64,000 nt of DNA from Patescibacteria group bacterium (GTDB lineage Bacteria; Patescibacteriota; Patescibacteriia; UBA9934), in NCBI GenBank assembly GCA_041659765.1, contig JBAZXR010000001.1:531338-595337 (forward strand), read 5' to 3'. Position 1 is the first letter of the stretch; each line of letters starts with the position of its first letter. The notes beneath the pieces are model-generated. The model saw nothing but the letters and a program-made list of their open reading frames with translations, had not been told where the DNA came from and did not search any database. Below, in pieces: positions 6,001-42,808 of the stretch. The position numbers and the translations under genes are program-made.

Positions 6001-6019
6001 ACAAGTACCATCATTTTAC

Positions 6020-8358: not shown

Positions 8359-8377
8359 ACAATGCTTGGAGGTGAAA

Positions 8378-8533
8378 GTCTGACTCTTCGCTCTCGCTCA
8401 GAGTGGGGACCATGATAAATTCTCAAGCATTCCATCCTGAGCCATGCGAAGGATCAAACTTTCACCGGTGAGGGTCGGACTCTTCGCGCTCGCTCAGAGT
8501 GGAGACCGGAATAATTCGCAAGCGATCCATCCT
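8378..8533. repeat. Composite MITE/REP-like palindromic element. Contains a half arm (8382..8406), a full ~73-bp hairpin unit (8431..8503) and a truncated arm (8524..8533).
   Basis: Arms TCCATCCTGAGCCATGCGAAGGATC and GGACTCTTCGCGCTCGCTCAGAGTGGA are mutual inverted repeats. Homologous to 57239..57311 and 7991..8066. Confidence 0.8.
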
Positions 8534-10834: not shown

Positions 10835-10841
10835 AGATGCC

Positions 10842-11189
10842 CTATTCGTTGGGCTTTTTGACGTTCTCAATGGCTACCGCCCGCACAAGCGATGTCATCT
10901 CCGCGGACAGCTTCTGCTGGGCAATCATGAGCCGATACACGGTGAACGTAAGGACCACAATGGCAGAGTAGACAATGACGTCTGCGCCGCGGCCGATGCC
11001 AACAAAGTTAGCAACAATGTTCGCTAAGTTCGGCACGAGCGCGACCGCGATAACGACGATCCACAAAAGCGTGAAGGCGATGGCCCAATATTTGGAAGCT
11101 TCTTTTTTGGAATACTGCTTCCACGTTTTATAAATGGCGTACGCAGCGAATGAAACAAGGATGATTTGGAAAATCATATTAGCCAACAA
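10842..11189 (-). CDS. DUF2304-family small membrane protein (partner of a GT2 glycosyltransferase).
   Basis: About 3 TM helices; GIGRGADVIVY...YRLMIAQQKLSAEMTSLVRAVAIEN matches the DUF2304 pattern. Lies immediately downstream of, and overlaps, the GT2 gene. Confidence 0.65.
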   Translation of the reverse strand: MLANMIFQIILVSFAAYAIYKTWKQYSKKEASKYWAIAFTLLWIVVIAVALVPNLANIVANFVGIGRGADVIVYSAIVVLTFTVYRLMIAQQKLSAEMTSLVRAVAIENVKKPNE

Positions 11190-11856
11190 GTTTCTTTTTC
11201 AAAATATCGGTAGCCGTAGCCATTGCTTTTAGCGTTGATTGTCCCTTCTGCAACGTCTCCTCGCTGTAGCGAATGGTCACGGGACGCTCGACGTACTTTA
11301 AACGCTTGTTCACAATAATGTCGAGAATCTCTGAAGCATGCGCCATGCGGTCGAGTGAAATACGAACCGACAAACCGGCGTTCCTCGAGAAAGCTCGAAA
11401 GCCGTTATGAGTATCGGTCACTTTAATGCCAGAAAGTCCGCGCGTAAACAGAACTCCAAGCAGGATCATCGCTCGGCGAAGTCCTGGCATATTCTCCGCT
11501 TCGCGCCCAAGAAAACGAGAGCCGAGCACCACGTCAGCCTCGCCCTTCATGATTGGTTCGAGCATCAGCGGAATCTCACCTCCCCGCATCTGCCCATCAG
11601 CGTCAAAATGCACAATCGCCTCCGCGCCAAGAACGTTAAGCGCGTAGTCCATGCCAGTTTGGAGCGACGCCCCCTGGCCGCGGTTTAATATATGCGTCAG
11701 CACATGCGCACCGGCTTTACTAGCAACCTCGCCGGTCTTGTCTCGACTCCCGTCATCGACAACTACCGCGAATGGCACGTACGCCAAAGCATCGCGAACT
11801 GCGTCTGCAATCCGCGCTTCTTCGTTATAGCCAGCAATAACCGCCACCACGCGCAT
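11179..11856 (-). CDS. Glycosyltransferase family 2 (dolichyl/polyprenyl-phosphate hexosyltransferase-like).
   Basis: MRVVAVIAGYNEE...VVVDDGSRDKT...HFDADGQ. DxD and GT2 core motifs in 225 aa. Confidence 0.85.
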   Translation of the reverse strand: MRVVAVIAGYNEEARIADAVRDALAYVPFAVVVDDGSRDKTGEVASKAGAHVLTHILNRGQGASLQTGMDYALNVLGAEAIVHFDADGQMRGGEIPLMLEPIMKGEADVVLGSRFLGREAENMPGLRRAMILLGVLFTRGLSGIKVTDTHNGFRAFSRNAGLSVRISLDRMAHASEILDIIVNKRLKYVERPVTIRYSEETLQKGQSTLKAMATATDILKKKLVG

Positions 11857-18764: not shown

Positions 18765-18816
18765 ATAAAAATAGCAAAAAAATGCTGTTTTGTCAAGTAT
18801 TTTACCTAATGTTAGC

Positions 18817-18862
18817 GAAGAAAAACCAAAATCCCCCTCAGCTTTCGCTTTGGGGGATTTTG
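18817..18862 (-). terminator. Rho-independent terminator for the giant surface-protein gene.
   Basis: Hairpin AAATCCCCCTCAGCTTTCGCTTTGGGGGATTT followed on the minus strand by TTTGGTTTTTCTT. Confidence 0.6.
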
Positions 18863-18900
18863 CTGTCTTAAACCTTTTGGCTTAGGACGTCACACTAGTC

Positions 18901-21900
18901 TTAGAAGACCAATGTTCCGCCGGAGACCGTGAGGCTGTCGACCAAGTACGAACCCCAGTAATCACCGGTGTTCGTAGCCGAAGCTGCGGAGTTAGTTCCA
19001 TCATCCTGCCAGAGCAAGGTGCCCGGGAGGCGCTGGATGTCGTCCGTAAGATCGTATGCCGTACCAGTGAGCGTAGCATCAGATGTGTAGATTCTGGAAC
19101 CAAGGTATCCACGAACAACGTAGAGGTTGTGAGTTGCGATACCGGTCACCAACATCTTTTCATCTGTAGAAGCCACCGTCGTAGCATCAGCCGTGCTGTA
19201 GTTGATCACATCGCCTACCTTGAAGGCAGTGCCGTCATCAACTGCGAGCGTGTTAGCCGTTTCCAAGAGATCCGTCACGTTCGAAGCGTCAGCAACGTTC
19301 AAGTACGTTGAAACGATTGGATCGGTCGGAAGATCGAAACGGATAGAGTCGTCGTTGGCTGAGCTTGCACCAGTTGAGTCAAAGTACACAGCGAAGTTAT
19401 TCGAGGTGCCCTTAGCTACAACCTCAGCAACTGGGAGCGCGATGCCCACAAAGCTGAGATCCTGGGTGAAGTTCGTAGTGTCACAAGCTGCACCTGTTGA
19501 CTGGTAAAGTGTCCAGTCAGCATCTGCAGTGTCCAACGTCTGAGACGTGCCATCCATCGTCAAGTTGTATAGATCGAAGTCGGCAGTCGTCGTTGCGACA
19601 GCTGGGTTATCCGTGTCACATTCGTTCCAGTCAACACTGGTAGCGTCTGTGTTGGAAGTGTCGTTATCCGTCAAAGTCACCTTGAAGAGCAGCTTGTTCA
19701 ATACTACGTCTTCGTTAGAAGAAGCAGCAACTGAGAAGCGGAGCACTTCAGAGCGGCCTGGAACAGCGCTACCGGAAGGTGAAGAGGAGCTGAGTGTAAC
19801 CACCGGCTTAGTTTCCTTAACCACGAAGGTAGGAACACTGTCGGTTGCGAACACATCATCACCAAGATCAGCAATTCCTGAAGCTGCCTCGTCAAGCGTG
19901 AAGCCAGAACCGGCTCCAGTTGCCTTGAACGATTCGCTGCCGGAGTTGTCTCCATCAGAGAAGGCCATACGGATCTTTTCGTTGCTGGTAGCGGAACCAC
20001 CAGAATCACGATCCGTAGGAGGCAAGTTCACGTAGACCTTAACATCCTTAGGTGTACCAACCGGTACGTACATCAATAGACCAGAGAACGTCGCAGCGTT
20101 TCCAGACATAGAGGCCGTAGCCGTACCCGTGGTGCCGTCGGCCTTAGGGTAAGAGAGGGTCACGAGAGAGATGTTGTTAGCGTAGACACTGGAATCAGCT
20201 GTAGAAGCCGTTCCAAGCATATCGTCTTCAGCCTGTTCTTCCGTGAAAGACAGCGTCTGAACGTTGAAGGATTCAAGTGTCGCTGCGAAGCGATACTGAG
20301 CTACTTCTACGTTGTTGGTACCTGTCAGCGCGAAGTCTGCGCTTGGGGTGCTTGAACCAACAGTCACTGAAAGCGTACCGGAATCAGATACCGTGACAGT
20401 GCGAGTAGGTGCAGTTCCACCGTTCACCGCGTTGCCCGTAGCTGTAACCGAGTTGCTTGAAGAATCTTCAGCTGTAATGTTGGTACCAGCCAAAGCGATG
20501 TCGAATGCGAAGAACGCATCGCCAGTCGTTGAGGTGTTAGCAAAGTTACACTGAACAGTCATGTTCTTAACGGCACCGGCTGCAATAGTCCAGCTCATGG
20601 TGCTGAAACGAATAGTCTGACCGTTAGTTGCTGGAGCTTCTGGACCGGCTACGCGCGTAACACCGTCATAGAGCGAGCAGGAGTCAACGTAATCGTTAAC
20701 GTCTGCGCTCTCAGAGGTTGTGCTAACGCCACCACCGATATCGTAAGTACCGCTCACAGACGTGTCCTGACCGTAAGCAGAAAGCGTCAGGTCAGTGATC
20801 GTTACTGGAGAAGCCAAACCAGTAGTCATAGTGAAGCCGACCACAGATACGTTCTGTGTACCGTCAACAGTGGTGACGCTGGTTGGCGTGCTGGCCAAGG
20901 AAACTACCAAGGAAGCCTGTCTGGCAACCTGGGTGTAACCAGTGATGTCTGAACCAGGGATGATATCCGCGGTAGCAAGAGCATCGCCGTTCGTGTCTTC
21001 CGTAACAAGACCACTCATGTCAAAGATGGCAGCAAGGGATTCACCAGAGGTGAGGCCGTTGTCTACGTCAGCCGTGACCGCCAAGTTCAATGTCTCACCG
21101 GCGTTCAAGGAGAAGTCATCTGTGAAGTCAATGATCTGAAGAGCGTCTTCTGCAGTACCAGTCAAGCTGGTTTCTGAAGAAGCGTCATCCGTAGTCGTGT
21201 CAAGCTCCAAAGGACCCATGATTACAGCGCCGGTGTCAGCGTTGATGATCTTGATGTCCTTCAAGTTAGCTTCAGAACCGGAGTTAATCAAACCGTCATC
21301 ATCAGCGTCACCAGTTTCCTGACCTTCTGTAACGGTGCCATCGTCGTCATCATCAGCAGCTACCTGGATGTCCAGGTCCTTAATGGTGATGAACTGAGTA
21401 GCCGTGACCGAGAATTTCAAGAGGGTCTGGTCCTGAGAATCTACCTGGACGTCGCCAGCAGCTGGGCCATTGAAAGCAAACGTAAGTTTGCCGCCCTTAA
21501 CCGTGCTGAAGGAACAGTTACCAGATGAAGATGTGCAGGAAGCACCGTCATAAGTACCAACGGTTCCGGTATCAACCGTGAGGCCGAATCCGAAGTCACC
21601 GCCGATAGCTACGATGTCAACATTGTTGTCGATGAACACCTTAACGGTGTCAGCTGACTGTCCACCAATATCCGCGGATACTGAGAAGATGTTGTTGCCA
21701 CCTTCATTGATGTGGAAAGGATGTGCGGAGAGATCAAAGACCACCCAGTCACCGGAGGAGTTAACACCAGTGGTAAGAAGAACACTGCCATCCCACAGAC
21801 GGAAGTCTGAGTGATCAGAAGCGTTGTCTACCTTAACGGTGATAGCGGAGATGTCAGCTGCTTCGGAGCCGTTAGCGGCTGCCTTGAAGGAACCGATTTC

Positions 21901-23154
21901 TGCATCCTGAGCGCCAACCGTTGGGTCAGCGATCGTGCCGGACTTTGTGATCAAGAGAGTTCCAGCATCAGCACCAGTGAAGGTGAAGATGTTACCCGTG
22001 ATTGGGAAGGAACCGCTCACTGATCCTGCAGACACTACGTCAGCAGAGTTGGCAACCTTGAAGCCGAACGTATCAGCTGCTACCTGGGAGGTGGAAGTGG
22101 TCACGCGCACCGTGTAGGTGTGCATGCTGTTGGCAGCGATGGAGCGGTTCAAGTTGTTGAAAGATACCTGGCGAGTGGAGGAGTTCACAGTGCGTGATTC
22201 CGTCAAACGCGTGCTACCTTCGTACAAGTAAACGCTAGAAATGTTGTTGGTGGAACCAGCTCCAATCATGGAGAGGGTTACGCCGCTAAACGTTGCTGCT
22301 GCGCTACCTGCCTGTACGTTGAAAGAAAAGACCTGCACGGAGTTCGATCCACCTGGGAGCGAAGCGCCGGCTGGCATGGAAGAAGCTGCGGAGACCGTCA
22401 GGCCGCCCGTAGAAACTACCGTACCAGTTACCGTCTGTGCGTCATCGGACACCGAAGCTTCCTTCGTGGTCAAATCTGCACCAGCGGACAAGGCACTATC
22501 TACAACACCGGCGCCATCCATGACGTACATGGACTGGAGACCGTTAGCTGACATACCAGCTGAGGATACCAAGCGCTTTGCACCATCCCAGTTAAGGTAG
22601 GTGTTTCCAGCACTCGAGTACATCATGCCGTTGTAAGCTGTTGCACTCATAAGAGATGCACCAACCGTGTAGTCCGTGAAGAAGACATCTGGCACGTCCA
22701 TGATGCGCTGGTTCCAGTCGGATCCAGCGTAAGCGACGGCCACTGCTTCTGTTTCAATCCAGTAAATCTTACCGTTGCGGCCTACTGCGTAGGTCTTCGG
22801 GTCAGAGGTCACCTTGATCCATGAAGAACCTGGGCGGAACACGATGTTGCCACCAAGAGTAATGTCAGAGATCGTGCTGTCAGAGACAGTCATGACGCCG
22901 CTGAAATCAGCTACGCCAGAGCTGTTGGAGTGCCAGCTTGAGTATGTTTTGAGGTTAGGGTACGTGTAGCGCATACCGTCATAACCGTAGTAGTAAACCG
23001 TAGAGAGCGAAGCGCTCCGGATACGGTCACCAGCGGCTGCAGCGTGCGTCACGGCTGGGCTCATAAGAGCACCGGCGCCAATCGAGAAAGCGATCGTCGC
23101 TGCAGCTACTGCGGCAGAGAGAGCGCGCTTTCCTGTTTCTAGAACATGTTGCAT
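18901..23154 (-). CDS. Giant (~1417 aa) secreted surface protein, rich in T/S/G/D and probably beta-rich. Putative adhesin or S-layer-like. The true start is likely MQHVLETGKRA at 23154.
   Basis: Long ORF with signal peptide AFSIGAGALMSPAVTHA and low-complexity, Ig-like repetitive composition. The ORF-track N-terminal extension (to 23355) runs through intergenic palindromes. Confidence 0.75.
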   Translation of the reverse strand: MQHVLETGKRALSAAVAAATIAFSIGAGALMSPAVTHAAAAGDRIRSASLSTVYYYGYDGMRYTYPNLKTYSSWHSNSSGVADFSGVMTVSDSTISDITLGGNIVFRPGSSWIKVTSDPKTYAVGRNGKIYWIETEAVAVAYAGSDWNQRIMDVPDVFFTDYTVGASLMSATAYNGMMYSSAGNTYLNWDGAKRLVSSAGMSANGLQSMYVMDGAGVVDSALSAGADLTTKEASVSDDAQTVTGTVVSTGGLTVSAASSMPAGASLPGGSNSVQVFSFNVQAGSAAATFSGVTLSMIGAGSTNNISSVYLYEGSTRLTESRTVNSSTRQVSFNNLNRSIAANSMHTYTVRVTTSTSQVAADTFGFKVANSADVVSAGSVSGSFPITGNIFTFTGADAGTLLITKSGTIADPTVGAQDAEIGSFKAAANGSEAADISAITVKVDNASDHSDFRLWDGSVLLTTGVNSSGDWVVFDLSAHPFHINEGGNNIFSVSADIGGQSADTVKVFIDNNVDIVAIGGDFGFGLTVDTGTVGTYDGASCTSSSGNCSFSTVKGGKLTFAFNGPAAGDVQVDSQDQTLLKFSVTATQFITIKDLDIQVAADDDDDGTVTEGQETGDADDDGLINSGSEANLKDIKIINADTGAVIMGPLELDTTTDDASSETSLTGTAEDALQIIDFTDDFSLNAGETLNLAVTADVDNGLTSGESLAAIFDMSGLVTEDTNGDALATADIIPGSDITGYTQVARQASLVVSLASTPTSVTTVDGTQNVSVVGFTMTTGLASPVTITDLTLSAYGQDTSVSGTYDIGGGVSTTSESADVNDYVDSCSLYDGVTRVAGPEAPATNGQTIRFSTMSWTIAAGAVKNMTVQCNFANTSTTGDAFFAFDIALAGTNITAEDSSSNSVTATGNAVNGGTAPTRTVTVSDSGTLSVTVGSSTPSADFALTGTNNVEVAQYRFAATLESFNVQTLSFTEEQAEDDMLGTASTADSSVYANNISLVTLSYPKADGTTGTATASMSGNAATFSGLLMYVPVGTPKDVKVYVNLPPTDRDSGGSATSNEKIRMAFSDGDNSGSESFKATGAGSGFTLDEAASGIADLGDDVFATDSVPTFVVKETKPVVTLSSSSPSGSAVPGRSEVLRFSVAASSNEDVVLNKLLFKVTLTDNDTSNTDATSVDWNECDTDNPAVATTTADFDLYNLTMDGTSQTLDTADADWTLYQSTGAACDTTNFTQDLSFVGIALPVAEVVAKGTSNNFAVYFDSTGASSANDDSIRFDLPTDPIVSTYLNVADASNVTDLLETANTLAVDDGTAFKVGDVINYSTADATTVASTDEKMLVTGIATHNLYVVRGYLGSRIYTSDATLTGTAYDLTDDIQRLPGTLLWQDDGTNSAASATNTGDYWGSYLVDSLTVSGGTLVF

Positions 23155-23330
23155 AAAGTTACAGAAACCATTTTCCCCTTTTAAGGGGTAAAGAGATAGA
23201 GGTTTGCACGGGCCTGCGGCCCCGACCTTTGAAGCGTGCTTACCCGGGATGCGTTGAACGCAGTCCCTTTCGGGAGGGCATCGTGCGATGCCCTGCCTGA
23301 AGGAAATGCCTTGCTCTATTCTGAGACGGG
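23155..23330 (-). other. Structured leader / intergenic region containing five consecutive GC-rich stem-loops.
   Basis: Palindromes CCCCTTTTAAGGGG (23177..23190), GGGCCTGCGGCCC, GCGTTCAACGC, GGGCATCGTGCGATGCCC (23276..23293) and the P1 element (23330..23349). Confidence 0.5.
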
Positions 23331-24476
23331 GACGGGGCAAGCCCCGTCCGTACAACTCGCTTCGCTCGTTGCCGCTTCGGCTTTGGCGGCTTCTTCCGCG
23401 GCCTTAGCGTCGGCTTCGGCCTTAGCTTCGGCGTCAGCCCTGGTCTGCATAATGAGGATTTCTGTTTCCGCAATGTTCGCCTCAAGTTTGAGCAGTTCTG
23501 CGTCTATCCCCTGGAGCGTAGCGAAGGCGCTTCTGTAACCACCGGCGGCGAAACCGTTCATAGCCTCCGGAATCTGTAGCTTGGTTTGCTTAATCACGTA
23601 GCTCAGTCTCTTTAGGTCATCGCCGGAAGGAATCCCCTTCACTCCGTCAAACATCTTCACTCCGAGCACCGTCTTGCTAATAGTGTCTAACCGATGCTCA
23701 TCGAAGGTTTGTCTGGCCTCTATAGATCCGAGCTCCTTAGTGAACATGGCCTTCAGTTCAACGGTTGATTTCTCTGTAGCTCCTTGCTCATGGACATCTA
23801 CCGCAACGGTAGTTGCGACAGTCTGCGCCTCCTTCACGGCCTGCTTTGCGTCAACGGTTTCCGTGCCGGCTGCTGAAGTTGAGTTGGTCGATGCCGTTTC
23901 TTCGATCACTGCCTTCATCGAGTCGATCTTATTCTGCACGTCAGTCACGACGGCGAGTGCCGTGGACGAACCAACACTGTCTTTCAAGTTTTTCAAATCG
24001 GCTGAGGCCTGAGAAAGTTCCGAGGCGTATTCCACCATGGCTGTCTTAGCGAGTGCCTGATGGCCCTCGTCCGTAGATCCTGATGAGCGAAGTTCTGCCG
24101 CTTCTCGCAATCTGCGCTCGGCGAACTCGGTATGGAGCACAGCGCGACGATCGAGCGACGCCAACCGAAGCTGAGCCTGTTCCGTAATACGTTTTACTGA
24201 GTAGAGGGTTTCGCCCGGCAAGCTCGACGAAGCCGCGCTCACCGTAGAAAGACTACCGGCAAAAAGAGTAACTGAAGCCACACCGATAGTTACCGGCTTA
24301 GAAATAAAAGAACTGACATACCAAGAGACGTAAGACTTGGAAGTCTGGCGAACTGGCAAGTCAGCGCTCACACGTGAAAGGAGGCGGGACTTAGCCGCGC
24401 CGTGCTCAGAAAGAGAAAGGGCCCCTGCTCGGGGATTATTTTTCAAACTCTTAAGTTGTGATAGAAGGTTCGACAC
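23316..24476 (-). CDS. DUF5667-like membrane protein, a candidate anti-sigma factor. It has a cytoplasmic N-terminus, one TM helix and a long helical extracytoplasmic domain.
   Basis: Motif PGETLYSVKRITEQAQLRL follows the TM helix. 26-nt overlap with the upstream ECF sigma gene. Confidence 0.6.
   Translation of the reverse strand: MSNLLSQLKSLKNNPRAGALSLSEHGAAKSRLLSRVSADLPVRQTSKSYVSWYVSSFISKPVTIGVASVTLFAGSLSTVSAASSSLPGETLYSVKRITEQAQLRLASLDRRAVLHTEFAERRLREAAELRSSGSTDEGHQALAKTAMVEYASELSQASADLKNLKDSVGSSTALAVVTDVQNKIDSMKAVIEETASTNSTSAAGTETVDAKQAVKEAQTVATTVAVDVHEQGATEKSTVELKAMFTKELGSIEARQTFDEHRLDTISKTVLGVKMFDGVKGIPSGDDLKRLSYVIKQTKLQIPEAMNGFAAGGYRSAFATLQGIDAELLKLEANIAETEILIMQTRADAEAKAEADAKAAEEAAKAEAATSEASCTDGACPVPVSE
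23330..23354. repeat. Palindromic micro-element, family P1 (GGACGGGGCAAGCCCCGTCCGTACA), forming the last codons (TDGACPV) of the anti-sigma-like gene.
   Basis: Same core and GTCCGTACA flank as 6446..6470. Confidence 0.8.
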
Positions 24477-25002
24477 AAAGTTCTTGGAGTGCTTTTTTGG
24501 CCCGGTGAAGGGTTACTCTGACATTATTCGGTGTCTGTTCAAGCGTACTCGCGATCTCGCTAATACTTAGCTCGTTCAAATACCTGAGCACTAGCACCTC
24601 ACGGTATTCATCCTTGAGAAGTTTCATCTTCTCTATAAGGTCATCGCTCTCCCCTTTCTGCGTGACTTCTTCAACCAAGGAACCGCTCGCAGGAACCTGT
24701 TCTAGCACCGAGTCCTCGACCACCTCCACCGGCGTATTCTTCCTATAGAAGTCCGCGGTGATGTTTCGGGCGATCCGGAAGAGCAAAGCTCCTACGTTAT
24801 CTACCGCACTCGACGTCATGTATTCCCAACCGCGGAGAAACACCTCGCTCGTGATCTCCTCGGCGTCCTCTTTGCGAGGGACCTTAAAGACCAGGAACCG
24901 ACGAATGCGGTCAGCATGGATGTCATACAACTCTCCGTACGCGTCCGTGTCCTTGAACCGGTACACGCGGAAGGCGAGGAATTTTTGACGGTAAGCTGAC
25001 AT
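24451..25002 (-). CDS. RNA polymerase sigma-70 factor, ECF subfamily.
   Basis: Region 2 (ITSEVFLRGWEY...LFRIARNITADFYRK) and region 4 (LKDEYREVLVLRYLNELSISEIASTLEQTPNNVRVTLHRAKKAL). Likely start MSAYRQKF. Confidence 0.85.
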   Translation of the reverse strand: MSAYRQKFLAFRVYRFKDTDAYGELYDIHADRIRRFLVFKVPRKEDAEEITSEVFLRGWEYMTSSAVDNVGALLFRIARNITADFYRKNTPVEVVEDSVLEQVPASGSLVEEVTQKGESDDLIEKMKLLKDEYREVLVLRYLNELSISEIASTLEQTPNNVRVTLHRAKKALQELCVEPSITT

Positions 25003-25089
25003 GTATGAAGTCGTTGTTAATCGGAAAACATTACAGTCTAGAGAAAATGTTGGCAAGATTAGCCACATGCCTCCTCTTGACCAGCTTTC

Positions 25090-25148
25090 TGAGTTTGTCT
25101 ACACTAGTATGGACAAGTAAAAAAGTTTGTCCACGCTAGTGTAGCATT
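25090..25148. promoter_or_regulatory. Two direct copies of an imperfect palindrome (TTGTCYACRCTAGTRTRGACAA-like, centred on ACTAGT), lying in the divergent sigma/HTH promoter region. Candidate operator.
   Basis: GTTTGTCTACACTAGTATGGACAAG ... GTTTGTCCACGCTAGTGTAGCA, immediately upstream of, and overlapping, the ATG of the HTH gene. Confidence 0.4.
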
Positions 25149-25424
25149 ATGCAAACGCCCATTCGCCTCTCCGTTTCTGAAGCTTCGAAGCTATTCGGTG
25201 TCAGCCCGCGGACTGTTCGCCGTGCAGTCTCCGATGGAGCTGTAACCTATATAGTCGTTCAAGGGCGGTATAAAATTACATTCGAGTCCTTGCTCAAGTG
25301 GAGCCAAGAAACCACGACCGTCAAAAACAAGCTGAACAAGTCCGGTCTTGGCCAGTACGTTGGCCAGTGGAAGATCAAAAACAAACTCTACTCCCCCAAC
25401 CCAAAATCGCTTGAAAATGAGTAA
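25149..25424 (+). CDS. Small HTH DNA-binding protein (excisionase/MerR-like HTH_17). Its last 12 codons are identical to the end of the orphan RHS fragment.
   Basis: LSVSEASKLFGVSPRTVRRAVSDGAVTYI, a helix-turn-helix. The C-terminus is YSPNPKSLENE. Confidence 0.6.
   Translation: MQTPIRLSVSEASKLFGVSPRTVRRAVSDGAVTYIVVQGRYKITFESLLKWSQETTTVKNKLNKSGLGQYVGQWKIKNKLYSPNPKSLENE
25388..25424 (+). repeat. Left copy of a 37-bp perfect direct repeat (CTACTCCCCCAACCCAAAATCGCTTGAAAATGAGTAA).
   Basis: Identical sequence at 32185..32221. Both copies encode the ORF end ...YSPNPKSLENE* and are followed by a terminator hairpin. Confidence 0.9.
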
Positions 25425-25426
25425 TT

Positions 25427-25468
25427 AAAACCCGCCTGTCCGGCACAACTGGAAGGCGGATTTTTGTT
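25427..25468 (+). terminator. Rho-independent terminator after the HTH gene.
   Basis: AAAACCCGCC-loop-GGCGGATTTTTGTT. Confidence 0.5.
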
Positions 25469-25537
25469 ATCCACATCAACCAACCTTTAGAGGCCGCTTT
25501 CGTGTTAGAACGAGCATAAGAATTAAATGAACGCTCT

Positions 25538-28500
25538 ATGAGAAAGCTGCTTCGTTCGGGATTCATAGCAACACTCTGTGTGCTCGCAACTACCCTGCCG
25601 GTGCGTGCGATAGAACAAGACAGTTCGCCGTTTATCGCATCCACACCAGTTCGTGTTGCTCCAGAAGACTCTTCGGGGTCTTTTTCATATTCCTATCCCA
25701 TCTCCGTTCCACCCGGACGCAATGCCATGCAGCCAAACATTTCGCTATCTTATAACAGCGGCGTCGCGGATGACGCTAGTATTACGGGCTACGGCTGGAG
25801 CCCCTCAATCCCAAAGATTGAGCGGGTCAACAAACGCGGGGTCGACAAGCTTTACAACAGACACGACTTCACTTCTTCGCTTGGCGGAGAGCTGGTCGAC
25901 GTATTGTTGTCCGATGGTTCGCACGGAACCTATGCGGTCAAAGTCGAAAATGGAAATTTCCTTACCTACGTTTACAACACGAACGAAACCTGGACGGTGA
26001 CGGACATGCTTGGCACGCAATACACCTTCGGCGGGAGCAGCAACTCGCGGGTCATTGACCCTGCCAACAGTTCTCACGTCTTCTCTTGGTACCTCACAGA
26101 AACTCGTGACACGAATGACAACGTCGTCACCTACTCATATTCCAGTACCAATAACCAGGTTTATCCGAGCAACATTAACTATACTGGACACGCCAACACT
26201 GCCGGTATTTTTGACATCGCCTTTACTCTGGAAGCAAGCTCGACCACAAACGAATCATTCGCCACGGGATTCTCTGTAAAAACCGGCCAGCGAATTTCCG
26301 CGATTACCGTAAAAGTGAATAATACAAATGTTCGTATCTACGACATTAACTATACGGTCGGAGACAACACCACCCGACCGCTTCTTTCAAGTATCACAGA
26401 GACCGGGATAGACGAGGCTAGCAACAGCATCACTAAACCCGCTACCACGTTTACATATTCCGCAAGCCACCGGACCTGGACGGAAGATACGACTGCCTCT
26501 ATTCCTATTGCCATAGCGGCAGGAGGCGCGTCTAGCATCGGCACGTTTGTCTTTGATGTAAATGGAGATTCGCTGCCAGACATCGTAAAATCATTAATAA
26601 TTGACAACGGCGGCACGCCCATCATTGAACGTGGAGTATATCTGAACGATGGAAATAACAACTGGGTAGAAGATGCAGGCTACACCATTCCAGTCTATTT
26701 CGCTGGTAATGGCTATGACCAAGGCGTGCGCATCGCCGATTTTAACGGTGACGGCTATCAGGACATTTTGAAAGCGCGGAGAGATCAGAACACCGGTGTT
26801 TTATACAGCGAAGTCTATATCAACGATGGCGATGGAACTGGGTGGACCCAAGATACTACAGTTGTCATTCCTACAGCCTTTGATAACTCAACAAGGATTT
26901 TTGATGTGAACGGAGATGGTCTTCCTGATATTGTCTATGGACGAATGAATCAATGGACAGCTGCGATCGAGAGCGAGTTCTACATCAACAATGGCGACGG
27001 AACTGGCTGGACCCTGGATGGAAATTATGTACTGCCGATAAACATTTCCACTGAAAAGGGAAAAGATGCGGCGTTCCGAACGGCCGACGTCAACGGCGAT
27101 GGGTTAACAGACCTCCTGCAAGCCGTATCAACAACCAACGAGGTCTATATCAATAAGGGGAACGGAACTGGGTGGATCAAAAACACCAGCTACGTCATTC
27201 CCGCAACCTTCCTCGCGACAGGAAAAGATACCGGCACGCGGCTTCTTGATATTAACGGAGATGGTCTCACGGACGTCTTCCACTCTCGTCTTGACTCAAC
27301 AGGAAACCCTGAAAGCAACCTCTACATCAACCGGGGAGGAGAGGAGGGATGGGTTGAAGATACAAACTTTCAAGGAGCGCCGGTCGCCATGACTACCAGC
27401 GCTGGCGCTGACCGTGGCGTCCGAGAAGATAATTTCTCTGGATCGATGTTGACGGACTTCATGCACTCCGTTAGAACCGGAACGCCCGAGGTTCTCTATA
27501 CCTACCTGTTCGTCCAAGACGGAGGCAGGGGCGATCTTCTAACTAGCGTCTCATCAACAAGCGGAGCGACGACAGATGTAGCCTACACCTCTTCCACCGT
27601 TCCCAACCCCTCACTTCCTTTCTCTCTTCAAGTTGTCGATACCATCACGACGGATGACGGATTCGGGAATGTTTCAACGCAATCTTATACATACGAAAAT
27701 GGTTCATTTTACTACAACAATGAATACGACAGAAAGTTCGCTGGGTTCGGAAAAGTAACGACAACGGACGGGCTTGGAAATGTGACGATTAGCTATTACC
27801 ATCAGGGAAATACTTCGGACTCCGCTCATGGCGAAGCAACGGATGACGTCAGCAAGCTCCTACATCGCTATCGCGAAGAACAATACGACAGTAATGGAAA
27901 CCTCTATCGCACGACAATTGACACGTGGGTTAATACTGACATCGGAAATGGCAGAGACTTTGTCTACAAAACGCAGACACTGGTCATGGACTACGATGGT
28001 GATGCCGATCACCGGGATACTGCCGTTCGGTATACATACAATACGAACAACGGAAACCTCGTTGAGAAAATCGAGTATGGTCTTGGCACTGGAAACGATA
28101 ACGGATCCTTTACGGATTCTGGCACGGATGATCGGACGACTGCCTACGCCTACGCGCAGTGGACGAGCGGTGAATCCGGCTACCTGGCCTCCGAAACGCT
28201 CACGGATCATGTCATTGACACCATTCGCCGAACTACCAGGTTCTATGACGGGAACACGACTAACGCCGTAAGCATTGGCAACGTTACGCGAGAGGTGAAA
28301 AAGATTTCGGCTACTGAAAATGCGGAAACAAACTTCGCCTATGACGCGTATGGTTTCCGTACGGCAGTGATTGATGCAAATGGCAATACTACAACCATTA
28401 CTCCCGACGCAGTGGAACTCTATCCGGCGAGCGTCACAAACGATCTCAGTCAAGTCACTGAGTACGTCTATGATTACTCGTCAGGCAAGGTTATAGAGAC

Positions 28501-31210
28501 CACGGATGCGAACGGCTTCATCAGCCAGACGGTGCTGGACGGATTCGATCGTCCTATCACAGAAAAGAAACCAAATCCGTCATCGCCGGCGTCACTCTTG
28601 AACGTTCGCACGTTCTCATATGACGACGTAAGTTTCCCTTCTTCGATCCATGAATCAGACCTGTTCGACGGTTTAATACAGAAAGAAACCTACACGTATT
28701 TTGACGGTTTCAGCCGGCCAGTGCAGACCCGCGAAGAAGCGGCCAGCAGCTACAGCGTGATCGACACCGCGTATGACGAACGTGGAGATGTGAAGAAGGC
28801 CTCCCTTCCCTATTCTTCTGCCGGCTCAGGCCACACGAGCCCAACCACTACCGTCGCGCTCTACGAGACTTACGCCCGTGACGCACTACATCGTCTCACC
28901 AGCAAAACAAATGCTGCAGGAAGCACCGTCACGAGTTACGACGAAGGTATTTCAACAGAAACAGACGCGGAAAATAACACCAAGAAATATCACTGGGATG
29001 GTTTCGGTCGGCTCGAGAGTGTCATTGAAGTCATCGATGCGACCGAGCTCGAAACGTCTTACGAGTACGATGCTGCCGGAAATCTTACCGGACTAACAGA
29101 CGCGGAAAATAACATTCGCACGTTTGCATACAACGGCCTTGGCAACCGGACTGCGATGACTGATCTCCACGCAAGCGGCGATATTTATTTTGGCGAATGG
29201 AGCTACGGTTTCGATCCCCTGGGCAACATGATTCAAGCCGTGAGCCCGAACGGTGTCACCACTACCTACGCGTACGACGAGCTCAATCGCCTTAAAACAG
29301 AAAACGCCTCCGGCACTAGCGGCACAGACCTCACGTACACCTATGATTCCTGCACGAACGGTGTTGGCAAGCGTTGCTCCGCTGCGGTTCTGGGAGGCGC
29401 AACCACCGCCTACACGTATGACGCGTTGGGACGCACGGCGACTGAAGTAAAAACCATCAGCGGCATTGGCTACACCACCGCCTACGCGTACGATCGCCAG
29501 AACAACGTGTCGACCGTCACCTACCCAGACACCAGCACGGCAACCTACGCGCTCAATAGCGCCGGGCAGATTACTTCTGCAGCGTTCGATGACGTTCACG
29601 GAGCTCCCGTCACCGAAGTCAGCAGCATTACCTACGGTCCGCACGGCAAAGTGACGGCAGCTACTTACGGCAACGGAGTTACTTCCACCTGGAGCTATGA
29701 TGCAGCAGAGCTCTATCGCCTCCAGAACAAGACCACCACGTCAGGCACGAATGGCATCGAAAACTTCATCTACGGTTATGATAACGTAGGCAATCTTGCA
29801 ACACTCGCAGACGCTTCATCGCTCTACGGCAGCCTGGCCATCACCTACGGCTACGATGACCTCTACCGCCTCACGGGTGCCGACTCCGTCAGCGCAGACA
29901 GTGCGCTCGACTACACAAAAACCTGGTCCTACACGGACATTGGCAACATTGTCTCTTCCTCAGACAAGGGTTCTTATACGTACGGCGGCACAGCCTCCGG
30001 CAACTACGCCAACCCTCACGCCCCTACTCACATTGGCAGCAGCACCACGCTGACGTACGACTACAATGGCAACATGACCGGTGACGGGACGTGGACAAAT
30101 ACTTGGGATCATCGGAATCAGCTTCTCACTTCAGTAGACGGAACAACGACGGTCACTTATCAGTACGACGACGCTGGTAACCGTGTGGTCCAGGATGGCT
30201 CGGGTGCGACCAGAATCTATCCGAATTCGTATTACTCCGTAGACGGATCCAACGTCGATCGCAACATTCTCGTCGGCGCCCTCGGCTCCGTAGCCACCTC
30301 AAACTGGAATGGTACAGTCGACAGCATCACCTACCATCACACTGACCACCTCGGTGGAACCCATATTGAAACCAACGAAAACGGGGCTACGGTTGAGTAC
30401 ATCATCTATTCTCCATTCGGTGGAACGCTCGTTGACGTAAAAACCGGAGCGTATGAGAACAAAAACAAATACACAGGAAAAGAAAAGGATATAGATACAG
30501 GTTGGTATTATTACGGTGCACGTTATTACAATGCGGAGAATGGAGTATTCTTGAGTGAGGACCCGGTGTTCTTGAACATGGGAACTTCGAATCATGAGTC
30601 CGAACAGAAACGTGTACTTACAGATCCTCAGCTTGGCAACAGTTACGCATACGCACGTGAGAATCCAATCACATATGTGGACCCCAACGGAGAGTTCATC
30701 CCTGTACTGGTGGCCGGACTTCTAGCAATGGCTCCTGAGATCGCTACAACGAGTGCGATCATAGCGAGTGGCGTTGGAGTTGCGGTCTTGGGCAACGCCC
30801 TAGACGTCGCCAGAAATCCGAATTCAAGCATGGTCGAGAGGCTGATGGCTGGAGCAGACGTAGCGGGCATAATTACCCCGTTTGGTGCGACCGAAAGACT
30901 CGGCACCCAAGGCTTCAGATCATTCACCGCATTCAAACGATTTGCCGGAGCGGCGGGCGAAGGACGGCAATGGCACCATATCGTCGAACAAAGTGCATCT
31001 AATATTGAACGATTTGGAGGGCAGGCAATCCACAGTACAGACAACCTCATCAGTCTTCCAAAAGAAATCCATCAACAAGTCAGTGGATATTATTCTTCAA
31101 AAATTCCTGAACTAACCGGAAATCAAACGGTTCGAGAGTGGCTCAGGCCACAATCCTTCGAAAAACAGGTAGAATTCGGCAAACGGATGCTCGATAAATT
31201 CACCAAGTAA
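25538..31210 (+). CDS. RHS/YD-repeat polymorphic toxin, 1890 aa. Architecture: signal peptide, SpvB-like N-domain, FG-GAP/integrin-like repeats, YD repeats, an RHS core ending YAYARENPITYVDPNGE, then a C-terminal WHH-type HNH nuclease toxin tip.
   Basis: SFSYSYPISVPPGRNAMQPNISLSYNS...GYGWS (SpvB); repeated FDVNGDGLPDIV; many YDxxGN YD repeats; tip contains GRQWHHIVEQ...N...H. Confidence 0.85.
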   Translation: MRKLLRSGFIATLCVLATTLPVRAIEQDSSPFIASTPVRVAPEDSSGSFSYSYPISVPPGRNAMQPNISLSYNSGVADDASITGYGWSPSIPKIERVNKRGVDKLYNRHDFTSSLGGELVDVLLSDGSHGTYAVKVENGNFLTYVYNTNETWTVTDMLGTQYTFGGSSNSRVIDPANSSHVFSWYLTETRDTNDNVVTYSYSSTNNQVYPSNINYTGHANTAGIFDIAFTLEASSTTNESFATGFSVKTGQRISAITVKVNNTNVRIYDINYTVGDNTTRPLLSSITETGIDEASNSITKPATTFTYSASHRTWTEDTTASIPIAIAAGGASSIGTFVFDVNGDSLPDIVKSLIIDNGGTPIIERGVYLNDGNNNWVEDAGYTIPVYFAGNGYDQGVRIADFNGDGYQDILKARRDQNTGVLYSEVYINDGDGTGWTQDTTVVIPTAFDNSTRIFDVNGDGLPDIVYGRMNQWTAAIESEFYINNGDGTGWTLDGNYVLPINISTEKGKDAAFRTADVNGDGLTDLLQAVSTTNEVYINKGNGTGWIKNTSYVIPATFLATGKDTGTRLLDINGDGLTDVFHSRLDSTGNPESNLYINRGGEEGWVEDTNFQGAPVAMTTSAGADRGVREDNFSGSMLTDFMHSVRTGTPEVLYTYLFVQDGGRGDLLTSVSSTSGATTDVAYTSSTVPNPSLPFSLQVVDTITTDDGFGNVSTQSYTYENGSFYYNNEYDRKFAGFGKVTTTDGLGNVTISYYHQGNTSDSAHGEATDDVSKLLHRYREEQYDSNGNLYRTTIDTWVNTDIGNGRDFVYKTQTLVMDYDGDADHRDTAVRYTYNTNNGNLVEKIEYGLGTGNDNGSFTDSGTDDRTTAYAYAQWTSGESGYLASETLTDHVIDTIRRTTRFYDGNTTNAVSIGNVTREVKKISATENAETNFAYDAYGFRTAVIDANGNTTTITPDAVELYPASVTNDLSQVTEYVYDYSSGKVIETTDANGFISQTVLDGFDRPITEKKPNPSSPASLLNVRTFSYDDVSFPSSIHESDLFDGLIQKETYTYFDGFSRPVQTREEAASSYSVIDTAYDERGDVKKASLPYSSAGSGHTSPTTTVALYETYARDALHRLTSKTNAAGSTVTSYDEGISTETDAENNTKKYHWDGFGRLESVIEVIDATELETSYEYDAAGNLTGLTDAENNIRTFAYNGLGNRTAMTDLHASGDIYFGEWSYGFDPLGNMIQAVSPNGVTTTYAYDELNRLKTENASGTSGTDLTYTYDSCTNGVGKRCSAAVLGGATTAYTYDALGRTATEVKTISGIGYTTAYAYDRQNNVSTVTYPDTSTATYALNSAGQITSAAFDDVHGAPVTEVSSITYGPHGKVTAATYGNGVTSTWSYDAAELYRLQNKTTTSGTNGIENFIYGYDNVGNLATLADASSLYGSLAITYGYDDLYRLTGADSVSADSALDYTKTWSYTDIGNIVSSSDKGSYTYGGTASGNYANPHAPTHIGSSTTLTYDYNGNMTGDGTWTNTWDHRNQLLTSVDGTTTVTYQYDDAGNRVVQDGSGATRIYPNSYYSVDGSNVDRNILVGALGSVATSNWNGTVDSITYHHTDHLGGTHIETNENGATVEYIIYSPFGGTLVDVKTGAYENKNKYTGKEKDIDTGWYYYGARYYNAENGVFLSEDPVFLNMGTSNHESEQKRVLTDPQLGNSYAYARENPITYVDPNGEFIPVLVAGLLAMAPEIATTSAIIASGVGVAVLGNALDVARNPNSSMVERLMAGADVAGIITPFGATERLGTQGFRSFTAFKRFAGAAGEGRQWHHIVEQSASNIERFGGQAIHSTDNLISLPKEIHQQVSGYYSSKIPELTGNQTVREWLRPQSFEKQVEFGKRMLDKFTK

Positions 31211-31213
31211 TAC

Positions 31214-31609
31214 ATGAATATGAGTAATCAACTATCTCCATCAAACAAAAAAACGCTTCTCTTGAGCCTCAATACACTCATTCGAAAGAACGGTGCGGAA
31301 TCACTAAATAGGATCGCTAATAATGAATACGAGAAGCTATTCTTTTATCCTCCAAATGAAAAGCTAACGGGAACAGAATCAGAAATGTTAATAGCCCTCC
31401 AGAAGAATCCGGCCATCTATCCTGTACTTCAAAAAATTATCACAAACGAATCTGCACGGGTAATTTTTGAACTACTCAATTGGGTGGATGGAACCGGCGA
31501 TCCAGATGGACCATGGAGCGGAGTAGCTCTCGTCGATAGAACGAGTGATGAAGACACGGAGATGCTGCATGATGCATTCTTGGAGGCTTACTGGGAGACA
31601 CAATCCTGA
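31214..31609 (+). CDS. Candidate cognate immunity protein for the RHS C-terminal nuclease.
   Basis: 131-aa ORF starting 4 nt after the RHS stop, co-directional, acidic and small. Position and size are typical of polymorphic-toxin immunity genes; no family recognised. Confidence 0.5.
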   Translation: MNMSNQLSPSNKKTLLLSLNTLIRKNGAESLNRIANNEYEKLFFYPPNEKLTGTESEMLIALQKNPAIYPVLQKIITNESARVIFELLNWVDGTGDPDGPWSGVALVDRTSDEDTEMLHDAFLEAYWETQS

Positions 31610-31639
31610 TCCACCAAACACAAAACCACCCTCATGATC

Positions 31640-32220
31640 TCTACCTCCTCACAAATGCCGACTCCGTCAGCGCAGACAGTGCGCTCGACTACACAAAAAC
31701 CTGGTCCTACACGGGCATTGGCAACATTGCCTCTTCCTCAGATAAGGGTTCTTATACGTACGGCGGCACAGCCTCCGGCAACTACGCCAACCCTCACGCC
31801 CCTACTCACATTGGCAGCAGCACCACGCTGACGTACGACTACAATGGCAACATGACCGGTGACGGGACGTGGACAAATACTTGGGATCATCGGAATCAGC
31901 TTCTCACTTCAGTAGACGGAACAACGACGGTCACTTATCAGTACGACGATGCCGGTAGTCGTGTTCTTCGGGACGGCTCGGGTGCAGCGAGAATCTATCC
32001 GAACTCTTATTACTCGGTAGACGGCACGAATGTTGATCGCAACATCCTCGTCGGCGCTCTCGGATCCGTCGCAACATCGACTTGGAACGCTTCTACTGCC
32101 ACGACCATCTACCATCACACGGACCACTTTGGTGGAACACACGTCGAAACGGATGAGAACGGTGATGCAATCGAATACAACATCTACTCCCCCAACCCAA
32201 AATCGCTTGAAAATGAGTAA
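31640..32220 (+). pseudogene. Orphan RHS core fragment. It duplicates main-gene region 29860..30420, has no start codon at the homology boundary and carries only a 9-aa tip.
   Basis: About 330 bp are near-identical to the main RHS, then diverge. Ends EYNIYSPNPKSLENE*. The in-frame ORF 31852..32220 begins at an internal Met. Confidence 0.75.
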
Positions 32221-32221
32221 A
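32185..32221 (+). repeat. Right copy of the 37-bp perfect direct repeat.
   Basis: Identical to 25388..25424. Confidence 0.9.
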
Positions 32222-32224
32222 CAG

Positions 32225-32256
32225 AAAACCGTCGAGCTGAGCTCGACGGTTTTCGT
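32225..32256. terminator. Bidirectional hairpin terminator between the orphan fragment and the convergent GT4 gene.
   Basis: AAAACCGTCGAGCTGAGCTCGACGGTTTTCG. Confidence 0.6.
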
Positions 32257-33425
32257 TATCGGGTTGCGAGAACGGGCTTTGCTTGGCTCGCGTGCTCTTC
32301 GTAGACATGAAGCGTCTTCTTCGAAATCGCGTCCCAGTTGAACGTGTCCTCTACATAATGACGAGCCACGTGTCCCATGGAGGCGGCCTTCATAGGGTCC
32401 TCTGTTAGCTCGATAATCTTCTCGGCGAGTTCGTTAATATTTCCCGGCTTGAATGGAATACCGTGGTCACCAATTGCCTCCATGTTCTCCGGAATACTCG
32501 CGGCAATCACAGCCTTGCCGTAGCTCATCGCTTCAAGAATGGCGATCGAGAGGCCTTCGCTGATGGAAGGGTGCACGATGAACCGGGAGCCCATGAAGAT
32601 GGACTCAAGCGTTTCTCCGCGCTGGTAACCGGTGAAGATAATTGAATCATCGCCCTTTGCCATCTCCTTCAGTTCTCGAACATACGCGTCCGTAAAAGCT
32701 GAGTCTCCCACGATTGCGAGCTTCAAATCTTTGAAAAGCTCTGGTCGGAGTTCGCGGGCCTTCTTCCAGCCAGAAATAAGCGTGTGCTGGCCCTTGTGGC
32801 GGACAAGTCGCGACACCATGGCGATGTACCCAAATGGCTCAAGCTTAAATGGCTTGAGTAAAATTGGGTCAGCGGAGGCTCGACGTGGCGAAATACCGTT
32901 AGGGATATACGTGGCAGTGACGCCGTATTCTTTCTTCACGTAGTCGCGAAGAACTTTCGATACTGTGATCGTTTCGTGCGGAAAAGTAATGGCGCAGTAT
33001 TCACCCAAATGCAACATCAAACGCGCCAACGGATTCCATTTATCATGGAAGCGGTCAATGGCGTGGAATGTAACCACCACGCGGGCGCGAGGGGCTAGGA
33101 CGCGAGGAATCCACGAGAGCAGGGACTGCCCGACTCCGTGAAAATGGTAGACGTCCGGACGTACAAAGAAACAGGCGTGCATGGTTGAAAGAAAAGTATG
33201 CGAAATTGCGTCCAGCATCTTCGTCTTAATGCTCGGCAAGCGAACAACCCGGATACCGTTAAACATTTTTGTACCGCGCGGCGTATACCAAAAACGCGCG
33301 TAAGCAATTACGGTGTTGTCGAGTCTCACCAAGCGGGTAGCCAACTCCGTGACATGCGTTTCCACGCCGCCGAAAATATTTGGCACTCCCTTTTGTCCAA
33401 TCATGGCAATTTTCATAACCGCCAA
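32256..33425 (-). CDS. Glycosyltransferase family 4 (GT4).
   Basis: MKIAMIGQKGVPNIFGGVETHV... N-terminus and a C-terminal GT-B GT4 region; 389 aa. Confidence 0.8.
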   Translation of the reverse strand: MAVMKIAMIGQKGVPNIFGGVETHVTELATRLVRLDNTVIAYARFWYTPRGTKMFNGIRVVRLPSIKTKMLDAISHTFLSTMHACFFVRPDVYHFHGVGQSLLSWIPRVLAPRARVVVTFHAIDRFHDKWNPLARLMLHLGEYCAITFPHETITVSKVLRDYVKKEYGVTATYIPNGISPRRASADPILLKPFKLEPFGYIAMVSRLVRHKGQHTLISGWKKARELRPELFKDLKLAIVGDSAFTDAYVRELKEMAKGDDSIIFTGYQRGETLESIFMGSRFIVHPSISEGLSIAILEAMSYGKAVIAASIPENMEAIGDHGIPFKPGNINELAEKIIELTEDPMKAASMGHVARHYVEDTFNWDAISKKTLHVYEEHASQAKPVLATR

Positions 33426-33507
33426 TCTTAGCAGAAAAATGGCTTTCTGTCAACCCAAAACTCGCCTTTTTTCGCTAGGTTCAGCGGTAAGTATAGCCTA
33501 CTTTTGG

Positions 33508-42602: not shown

Positions 42603-42642
42603 CCCGCCCCGCGACCATGTCGTGCGGGCGGATTCTTTTTTA
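42603..42642 (+). terminator. Rho-independent terminator.
   Basis: CCCGCCCCGCgaccatgtcGTGCGGGCGGattctttttt. Confidence 0.65.
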
Positions 42643-42808
42643 TCCACACCTCGATTACGTGTGGCTCGGAAACGTGGTGCAATAGAAGGGTAAGAAATCA
42701 AACTCCCCATTAACTTGGCGGGGTTTATTTTTTTGAAAAATCTTAATAAACGGAGGGCCTATGTGAACAAATAACGGTGCGGTATACTTTATTCAATAAC
42801 TGTTTTCT

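Follow-up and report, generated by a model that had tools for sequence, protein, structure and literature searches.

A short direct repeat around an RHS toxin island in a Patescibacteria genome as a probable scar of illegitimate recombination

The stretch of DNA analysed here, hereafter called the window, comprises 64,000 nucleotides (positions 531,338 to 595,337 of contig JBAZXR010000001.1 of the Patescibacteria group bacterium assembly GCA_041659765.1) and harbours a polymorphic toxin island of the RHS type. The island lies between a small helix-turn-helix (HTH) gene and the convergently oriented gene of a GT4-family glycosyltransferase, and is represented by a main RHS gene, a small gene in the position of an immunity gene and a truncated duplicate of the RHS core, which is referred to below as the orphan (Table 1). 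The HTH gene and the orphan share their 3' end, a short perfect direct repeat that brackets the whole island, and the origin of this repeat is the subject of the present analysis. The evidence given below points to a single illegitimate recombination between an island-bearing and an island-free allele of the locus as its probable source.

Table 1. Features of the RHS island and its borders (positions of the window).
Feature	Position	Strand	Details
HTH_17 / excisionase-family small DNA-binding protein, 91 aa	25149..25424	+	Pfam PF12728, E = 2.8e-8
Direct repeat, copy 1	25387..25424	+	38 bp, exact; last 12 codons of the HTH gene and stop codon
Terminator hairpin termY'	25431..25460	+	-21 kcal/mol, z = -3.7; follows the HTH gene
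TTATCCACA 9-mer (DnaA-box consensus)	25467..25475	+	Inside the block TGTTATCCACA(C/T)CA
Main RHS/YD-repeat polymorphic toxin gene, 1890 aa	25538..31210	+	Pfam PF05593, PF03534, PF13517, PF12256; TIGR01643, TIGR03696
Rhs_assc_core, residues 1624-1718	30407..30691	+	TIGR03696, 63 bits (cutoff 32.5); ends ...ITYVDPNGE
C-terminal toxin region	30692..31210	+	172 aa; last ~100 aa form a conserved domain
Putative cognate immunity gene, 131 aa	31214..31609	+	Assigned by position only; starts 3 nt past the RHS stop
Orphan RHS core fragment	31634..32182	+	5' ~300 nt 99% identical to the main gene; 3' ~230 nt of a different allele
Direct repeat, copy 2	32183..32220	+	32183-32192 (TCTACTCCCC), microhomology; 32193-32220, 28 nt of HTH-only tail with stop codon
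Bidirectional terminator termZ	32224..32254	.	-24.7 kcal/mol, z = -7.7; 14-pair stem; ancestral HTH-GT4 spacer, colinear with the empty-site spacer of relatives
GT4-family glycosyltransferase	32256..33425	-	Pfam PF00534, 8.3e-27; PF13439, 9.4e-19; right-hand neighbour of the HTH gene in island-free genomes

A preliminary description of this DNA, made from the letters alone, had reported a perfect repeat of 37 bp at the ends of the HTH gene and of the orphan. Such a 37-mer does occur exactly twice in the window (25388-25424 and 32184-32220; chance expectation, 0), although the second copy had been placed one nucleotide too far, at 32185..32221, and the exact repeat is 38 bp long (TCTACTCCCCCAACCCAAAATCGCTTGAAAATGAGTAA). 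A looser repeat of 51 nt with 92% identity reaches further upstream of this core. The starts of the two copies are 6,796 bp apart, and the block between them is the RHS toxin island. As was claimed, and as both translations confirm, copy 1 closes the HTH open reading frame (ORF), which ends in ...KLYSPNPKSLENE before the stop codon, and copy 2 closes the orphan reading frame, which ends in ...EYNIYSPNPKSLENE. Beyond the repeat the sequences part, running on as TTAAAACCC after copy 1 and as ACAGAAAACC after copy 2, and each copy is indeed followed by a terminator hairpin of its own, the two hairpins being different (Table 1).

The C-terminus of the HTH protein had been taken for chimeric in the preliminary description, a view which the homologues of this protein do not bear out. 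Searches detected 712 of them, all named ones from Patescibacteria and many 70-99% identical to the window's protein and of the same length; the match to TIGR01764 (28.1 bits) falls just short of the cutoff of 28.8. In an alignment of 35 Patescibacteria homologues the tail ...KIKNKLYSPNPKSLENE follows the consensus ...W(K/N)I(K/R)N(K/R)LYSPNPK(S/A)LE.., and S82, P83 and N84 are invariant, genomes free of the island included. Since the tail is kept across the HTH family, also where no RHS island is present, the direction of copying was from the HTH gene to the orphan, the last nine codons of which are the copy. The HTH gene is accordingly a conserved Patescibacteria gene with a native C-terminus and the native source of the repeated tail, and it is the orphan toxin fragment that is the chimera.

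The first in-frame start codon of the orphan is at 31852, and NCBI annotates only a 122-aa ORF from this position (WC813_03040), which was also the sole match in a protein search with the orphan. In agreement with the preliminary description, in which the segment 31640..32220 was said to duplicate the RHS core, near-identical at first and then diverging, positions 29878-30171 of the main gene and 31656-31949 of the orphan agree at 291 of 294 nucleotides, with a perfect run of 206 nt, and over the following 233 nt (30172-30404 versus 31950-32182) the identity drops abruptly to only 74%. This switch from 99% to 74% marks the boundary of a recent gene conversion or crossover near 30171/31949. In the final 82 residues of the orphan, 62 positions agree with its own main gene and 68 with the RHS protein of a related species (locus L001, see below); the orphan comes from a different allele. 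Two further points of the preliminary description hold as well. The orphan departs from the main gene right after the YSP codons, the main gene reading ...EYIIYSPFGG... and the orphan continuing its YSP with NPKSLENE and the stop codon, and it has no toxin or immunity module, only the terminator and then the convergent GT4 gene lying downstream. The orphans of the L001 locus start just upstream of the sequence (L/V)EY(I/T)IYSPFGG; the orphan of the window is thus what lies upstream of a cassette that has itself been removed.

The place where the orphan passes into the HTH tail is marked by a microhomology of 10 nt, TCTACTCCCC, which lies in the YSP codons of both the RHS "IYSPFGG" and the HTH "LYSPNPK" sequences (25387-25396 in the HTH gene). 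At the point corresponding to the junction, the main gene and the first orphan of L001 read ATCATCTACTCCCCATTCGG and the HTH gene reads AAACTCTACTCCCCCAACCC; the orphan of the window is RHS-like up to TCTACTCCCC (…GAATACAACATC) and identical to the HTH gene beyond it. The 10-mer is thus shared with native RHS sequence, and the 38-bp repeat therefore resolves into 10 nt of microhomology and 28 nt of HTH-only tail with its stop codon. Matches of 10-11 nt between the HTH gene and the island are common, about four arising by chance, so that the junction site need not be designed and the microhomology may have been used opportunistically. The break falls at a domain boundary, Y1624 of YSPFGG being the first residue of the TIGR03696 match.

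The relatives with which the locus was compared (loci with L and P numbers) all belong to other species and share 69-82% DNA identity with the window. In five lineages (L005-L008/L010/L012, L009, L014, L019 and the P0006 contig) the slot is empty, the HTH gene being followed after ~30-80 bp by the convergent GT4 gene. Window positions 18001-25424 align to 2851-10276 of the empty locus L009, and 32170-33495 to 10226-11545, the latter as one BLAST piece with 81% identity; the two alignments overlap in L009, and both repeat copies therefore fall on the same L009 bases. Hence a single repeat copy corresponds to the empty site of relatives and the direct repeat flanks an inserted block, and the tail in copy 2, with the terminator and GT4 gene behind it, is colinear as a single block with the L009 empty site. 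Occupied slots were found in three other lineages. In that of L001-L004 and L013, an RHS protein of 1,818-1,909 aa is followed by three orphan toxin/immunity pairs; in the P0014 lineage a fragmented RHS gene is accompanied by a ribonuclease toxin and Barstar; and in L015, the contig of which ends 70 bp past the HTH gene, the left-edge sequence is the same as in the window and L001. The RHS islands of the L001-L004 lineage, L015 and the P0014 lineage thus occupy the same slot with different toxins, and in L011 and L016 other genes follow the HTH gene. This comparison of island presence and absence, which the preliminary description had proposed as a check, identifies the 6.8-kb block as a true insertion, and the slot right after the HTH stop is a variable region with RHS islands as frequent occupants. 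No second copy of the tail is present in the L001 island, the only island of a relative that could be seen whole, and the tail pattern occurs once only in each locus examined; the comparison of tail duplication is one with L001, the islands of L015 and the P0014 lineage having been compared without their right ends.

Other states of the neighbourhood were observed on the P0014-lineage contig, at L017 2632-5110 and at L019 1-1535. A gene with a MATCAP domain overlaps the HTH stop in the P0014 lineage and precedes the fragmented RHS gene, the toxin of which is a barnase-like ribonuclease accompanied by Barstar. In another lineage the HTH-GT4 slot is empty and an RHS gene for 1,906 aa is located a few genes upstream.

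The features described above are best accounted for, in our view, by one illegitimate recombination of an island-bearing with an empty allele, of the type termed homology-facilitated illegitimate recombination (HFIR), and we consider it probable, though by no means certain, that the 38-bp repeat is the scar of such an event. In this respect the preliminary description of the locus, as a recombination scar in an RHS island with a main gene, a gene in the immunity position and a displaced orphan core, proved to be correct. HFIR combines microhomologies of 3-10 bp with a one-sided homologous anchor (PMC6382021), and is known from naturally transformable bacteria (de Vries & Wackernagel 2002, Prudhomme 2002 and Meier & Wackernagel 2003, in the form in which they are summarised in PMC6382021). 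One parent would have been an island allele with the HTH gene, terminator, RHS gene, immunity gene, orphan and further sequence, and the other an empty allele with the HTH gene, terminator and GT4 gene. At one end the exchange would have used ordinary flanking homology, either in or upstream of the HTH gene or in or downstream of the GT4 gene; at the other end, ...ATC-TAC-TCC-CC (IYSP) of the orphan would have been joined to ...CTC-TAC-TCC-CC (LYSP) of the HTH gene through the 10 nt of microhomology. Both flanks, either of which may have served as the anchor, are conserved genes colinear with empty-site genomes of other species.

Such an exchange would have occurred most simply after the uptake of conspecific DNA. 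That this lineage can be transformed is an assumption based on what is generally known of Patescibacteria, and the conspecific nature of the parents, transformation with RecA as the route and any roles of donor and recipient are inferred. The empty genome may have been the recipient of island DNA, with the anchor in or upstream of the HTH gene, or else an island genome may have taken up DNA of the empty allele, with the anchor in the GT4 gene and with deletion of the toxin/immunity module of the orphan. The orphan would have lost everything from FGG onward, that is, the Rhs_assc_core, the toxin and the immunity gene, and would have received in exchange the HTH tail (28 nt, with the stop codon) and the terminator of the empty site, the upstream HTH gene keeping its own native tail intact. 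In an earlier and separate step an RHS 3' fragment from a different allele would have been displaced and become the orphan, the first ~300 nt of which were later homogenised with the main gene.

Several points weigh against this account. Degenerate tail-pattern scans of metagenome and genome contig collections yielded five loci, all of other species, and exact look-ups of the window's HTH and orphan ORFs returned no record, so that no same-species genome was found; the relatives are at least ~19% divergent at the DNA level, and the parental alleles therefore had to be inferred from other species. Either direction of the exchange leads to the same product, which makes donor and recipient indistinguishable. 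The same left junction would also be produced by an intragenomic template switch copying 28 nt from 6.8 kb upstream. Moreover, the island-associated terminators look swapped between left and right when the window and L001 are compared, and HFIR offers no explanation for it. The left terminator termY' (25432-25459) has a clear homologue in the terminator on the opposite, GT4-proximal side of the L001 island, at its right end (L001 20161-20188, found by pattern match), with a local alignment score of 37 against a shuffle maximum of 24, and the HTH-proximal terminator flank of L001 (TAA-CAGAAAACCG) resembles the flank of the copy-2 terminator of the window (TAA-ACAGAAAACCG...). One might imagine that the L001 island underwent a mirror-image exchange with an empty allele at its left edge and that the swapped terminators stem from it, but this is speculation. 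Apart from these points, two other readings of the island edges were considered. The hexamer GTTATC at the left edge of the island may be what is left of the GT4 stop region, which would imply an insertion inside the end of the GT4 gene; the hexamer also belongs to the extended terminator palindrome, however, and the GT4 end of L001 is intact. That the L001 island ends on the right in a degraded second HTH tail was rejected, the local alignment score lying inside the shuffle range.

The template switch mentioned above, which would be of the microhomology-mediated break-induced replication (MMBIR) type, is the alternative that fares best, although we consider it unlikely. A strand stalled in the orphan at TCTACTCCCC would have been re-primed on the HTH 10-mer 6.8 kb upstream, copied 28 nt as far as the stop codon and switched back beside the right-end terminator already in place, so that the toxin/immunity module was deleted without a second allele. 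At the left junction it would rely on the same 10 nt of microhomology, the identity of the repeat copies (38 of 38) is what is expected of a copy made within one genome, and no conspecific empty allele has been observed; the return, however, would have to occur exactly after GAGTAA, where microhomology is not evident (TTAAAACCC versus ACAGAAAACC). Furthermore, the copy-2 flank TAA-ACAGAAAACCG matches the native HTH flank of L001, TAA-CAGAAAACCG, and is colinear with the whole L009 spacer, which argues that the tail and the terminator arrived as one native block.

Integration of the Campbell type seems less likely again. A circle comprising the tail, termY', the RHS gene, the immunity gene and the orphan up to YSP would have formed in a donor by a microhomology loop-out and entered an empty site by a single crossover in the 28-38 bp of the tail, the repeats being recA-dependent pseudo-att sites. 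The 38-bp direct repeats do flank the 6,796-bp block exactly, and recombination between them would restore a perfect empty site, but this scheme calls for further steps in addition to the same microhomology event, the loop-out would fuse the HTH gene of the donor to RHS sequence, functions for replication or transfer are absent, and the L001 island lacks the repeat.

That the junction is an artefact of assembly, in which a chimeric or collapsed contig joined an empty-site strain to an island strain, is very improbable. The source is a metagenome-assembled genome, the slot varies between strains, and a repeat of 38 bp, being shorter than a read, could mislead the small-k steps of an assembly graph. 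However, the native orphan (…TCTACTCCCCATTCGG) and the HTH gene have only 10 nt in common, which is below any assembly k-mer, and since assemblers join at shared k-mers, the junction of orphan and tail must be present in the reads. In addition, the order of HTH gene, terminator, TTATCCACA and RHS gene at the left is seen independently in L001-L004 and L015, and the contig is 897 kb long.

Pfam scans of all large ORFs between 12.9 and 38.9 kb, that is, of the island and ~10 kb around it, revealed no recombinase or transposase; the island DNA gave no match to a phage or plasmid, and no Rfam family and no tRNA were found in the window. A mobile-element origin was accordingly rejected on the last three grounds. 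Weakest of all, and largely refuted, is the suggestion of the preliminary description that the repeats are att-like sites, i.e. that an island was integrated site-specifically at the HTH 3' end and brought a replacement gene end with it, the excisionase-family HTH protein possibly acting as recombination directionality factor: the flanking repeat does overlap the 3' end of a conserved gene, the HTH protein is annotated as excisionase family and the slot downstream of it is variable in many lineages, but no integrase, transposase or relaxase is encoded in the island or within ~10 kb, the HTH gene is chromosomal and conserved with identical synteny in island-free genomes, the L001 island sits in the same slot without a second tail copy, and the inner edge of the repeat, at the left of copy 2, is formed by a microhomology that lies within RHS codons and has a length (10-11 nt) at which chance matches occur.

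Compared with known systems, the locus under the preferred HFIR reading is a new instance of known processes, namely Rhs orphan formation and microhomology-mediated illegitimate recombination, and represents a real but ordinary scar. The origin of the orphan fits the model of 'C-terminal displacement', by which orphan rhs-CT/rhsI modules are explained (Jackson et al. 2009; Poole et al. 2011, PMC3150448; Steele et al. 2017, PMC5727410). As in Rhs orphan loci, a small gene in the immunity position comes after the full-length rhs gene and precedes a 5'-truncated, start-less rhs fragment which shares the core, and the L001 relative carries the canonical array with its three orphan toxin/immunity pairs. 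The orphan of the window is, however, the reverse case, consisting of ~550 nt of core only, without Rhs_assc_core, toxin or immunity gene, and of 28 nt from a neighbour that is not an rhs gene: the core is shared, whereas in place of the toxin C-terminus and immunity gene of a canonical orphan module it has YSP and nine HTH codons. The loci also differ in the host, which belongs to the Patescibacteria (candidate phyla radiation, CPR), and in the signal-peptide-like N-terminus with SpvB and TcdB-midN, which takes the place of an association with PAAR or VgrG of the type VI secretion system.

With HFIR the locus shares the one-sided anchor, the join through 10 nt of microhomology and heterologous DNA set on a truncated resident sequence with a short duplication, but here the process is deduced from a natural genome and not from an experiment. 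Islands with an integrase and att repeats at the 3' ends of tRNA genes or small conserved genes are similar in that the repeat flanks a variable block of several kb and one copy completes a conserved gene; they differ in that no integrase is present here, the edge of the repeat is set by microhomology in the coding sequence of the cargo, and the L001 island has no repeat. The main RHS protein itself resembles the TcB/TcC-like Tc toxins and teneurin-like YD-shell proteins in having SpvB, an FG-GAP beta-propeller, TcdB_toxin_midN, RHS repeats, Rhs_assc_core and a variable C-terminal toxin. It differs in being a single fused polypeptide of a bacterium with a tiny genome, and a search of the window, which was not exhaustive, identified no TcA-like partner.

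The current view of Rhs evolution is left unchanged by these observations, so the value of the locus is illustrative and not conceptual. It corrects a tempting misreading, in that the regulator gene is intact and the toxin fragment chimeric, and offers a clean natural junction of the microhomology type, between what are probably island-bearing and island-free alleles, in the genome of an uncultivated CPR bacterium, where recombination and the turnover of toxin islands are not open to study in culture. RHS polymorphic-toxin arrays with orphans at a conserved hot spot in several Patescibacteria lineages also bear on competition among bacteria with small genomes. The 38-bp repeat could permit a rare, RecA-mediated and precise loss of the whole island. 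A far stronger proposal, that the HTH-GT4 spacer is a dedicated swap slot in which the repeat makes the 6.8-kb island an on/off cassette, precisely and reversibly excisable without a recombinase, and in which the swapped terminators and the TTATCCACA block are functional island ends, seems rather doubtful.

The domains of the main RHS protein follow each other in the order signal peptide-like N-terminus (judged by eye from the translation), SpvB (PF03534, E = 2.6e-21), FG-GAP repeats, TcdB_toxin_midN, RHS repeats (PF05593, E = 1.7e-28, in 5 stretches; TIGR01643, 78 bits against a cutoff of 15.8), Rhs_assc_core and C-terminal toxin. The DPxG(L)-type motif that closes the Rhs-associated core and sets it off from the variable C-terminus is present (...VDPNGE). 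Within the gene, region 26806-27331 contains 3-4 tandem-like repeats of 165 nt, 68-72% identical to each other, which correspond to FG-GAP/VCBS beta-propeller blades. The toxin domain carries the motif GFxSFxAFK...WHHIVEQ...N...H...SGYYSSK...TVREW (30900-31207, RHS residues ~1790-1890). The toxin C-terminus has 41 homologues, several of which are themselves RHS C-termini or orphans, and no Pfam domain is on record for it; the homologues of the domain span several phyla (Bacteroides, Archangium, metagenomes). Its match to Pfam HNH_2 (E = 0.007) stays below the cutoff, and in a Foldseek comparison of an AlphaFold2 model of the domain (pLDDT, i.e. predicted local distance difference test, 85) with the PDB the top matches were His-Me/HNH nucleases, at non-significant values (E > 1). 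The toxin is read here as a probable, though weakly indicated, nuclease of the His-Me/HNH type. The 131-aa ORF behind it matched no family in profile searches, and the gene located behind a toxin homologue on the unrelated metagenome contig L022 is not homologous to it.

On the same contig, orphans of this toxin family are interleaved with genes in which a Y1 transposase domain (PF01797) is combined with a DnaA C-terminal DNA-binding domain (PF08299), at 1974-2942 and 4545-5531, which may represent a mobilisation system for RHS cassettes. They were also considered as a link to the TTATCCACA box, which was rejected, no homologue being present in the window.

The block TGTTATCCACA(C/T)CA, which contains the 9-mer TTATCCACA, is located just past the left terminator in all three islands for which sequence is available there (the window, L001 and L015). 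The 9-mer itself occurs in the window at 25467-25475 and 42640-42648 (2 copies, 0.18 expected), in L001 at 10309-10317, in L015 at 1927-1935 and in L019 at 9604-9612 on the minus strand, in an intergenic position. Both copies of the window lie directly 3' of a GC-rich terminator hairpin with a T-tract (GGCGGATT(T/C)TTT(G/T)TTATCCACA(T/C)C), and the 9-mer could be a promoter or operator element. The second copy is followed by an intergenic stretch of ~90 nt (42650-42740), which extends to a terminator-like hairpin (CCCCATTAACTTGGCGGGG, then a T-run) and has no Rfam match; it might be a small RNA.

Upstream of the HTH gene, the region between it and a divergent gene for a sigma factor of the extracytoplasmic function (ECF) type shows very strong cross-species conservation at 25077-25148, where a promoter with TTGACC, a 17-nt spacer and TACACT is found. 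The TACACT hexamer overlaps a long inverted repeat (TTTGTCTACACTAGTATGGACAA / TTTGTCCACGCTAGTGTAG), which is probably an autoregulatory operator. The ATG of the HTH gene follows the promoter without an obvious Shine-Dalgarno sequence, and the transcript is possibly a leaderless mRNA.

Further away from the island, a gene on the minus strand (15804-18764) encodes a 986-aa protein with 11 Cu-binding_MopE repeats and is locally GC-rich (0.61 versus ~0.52 elsewhere). A long antisense ORF (16371-18632) overlaps this gene and is probably a compositional artefact.

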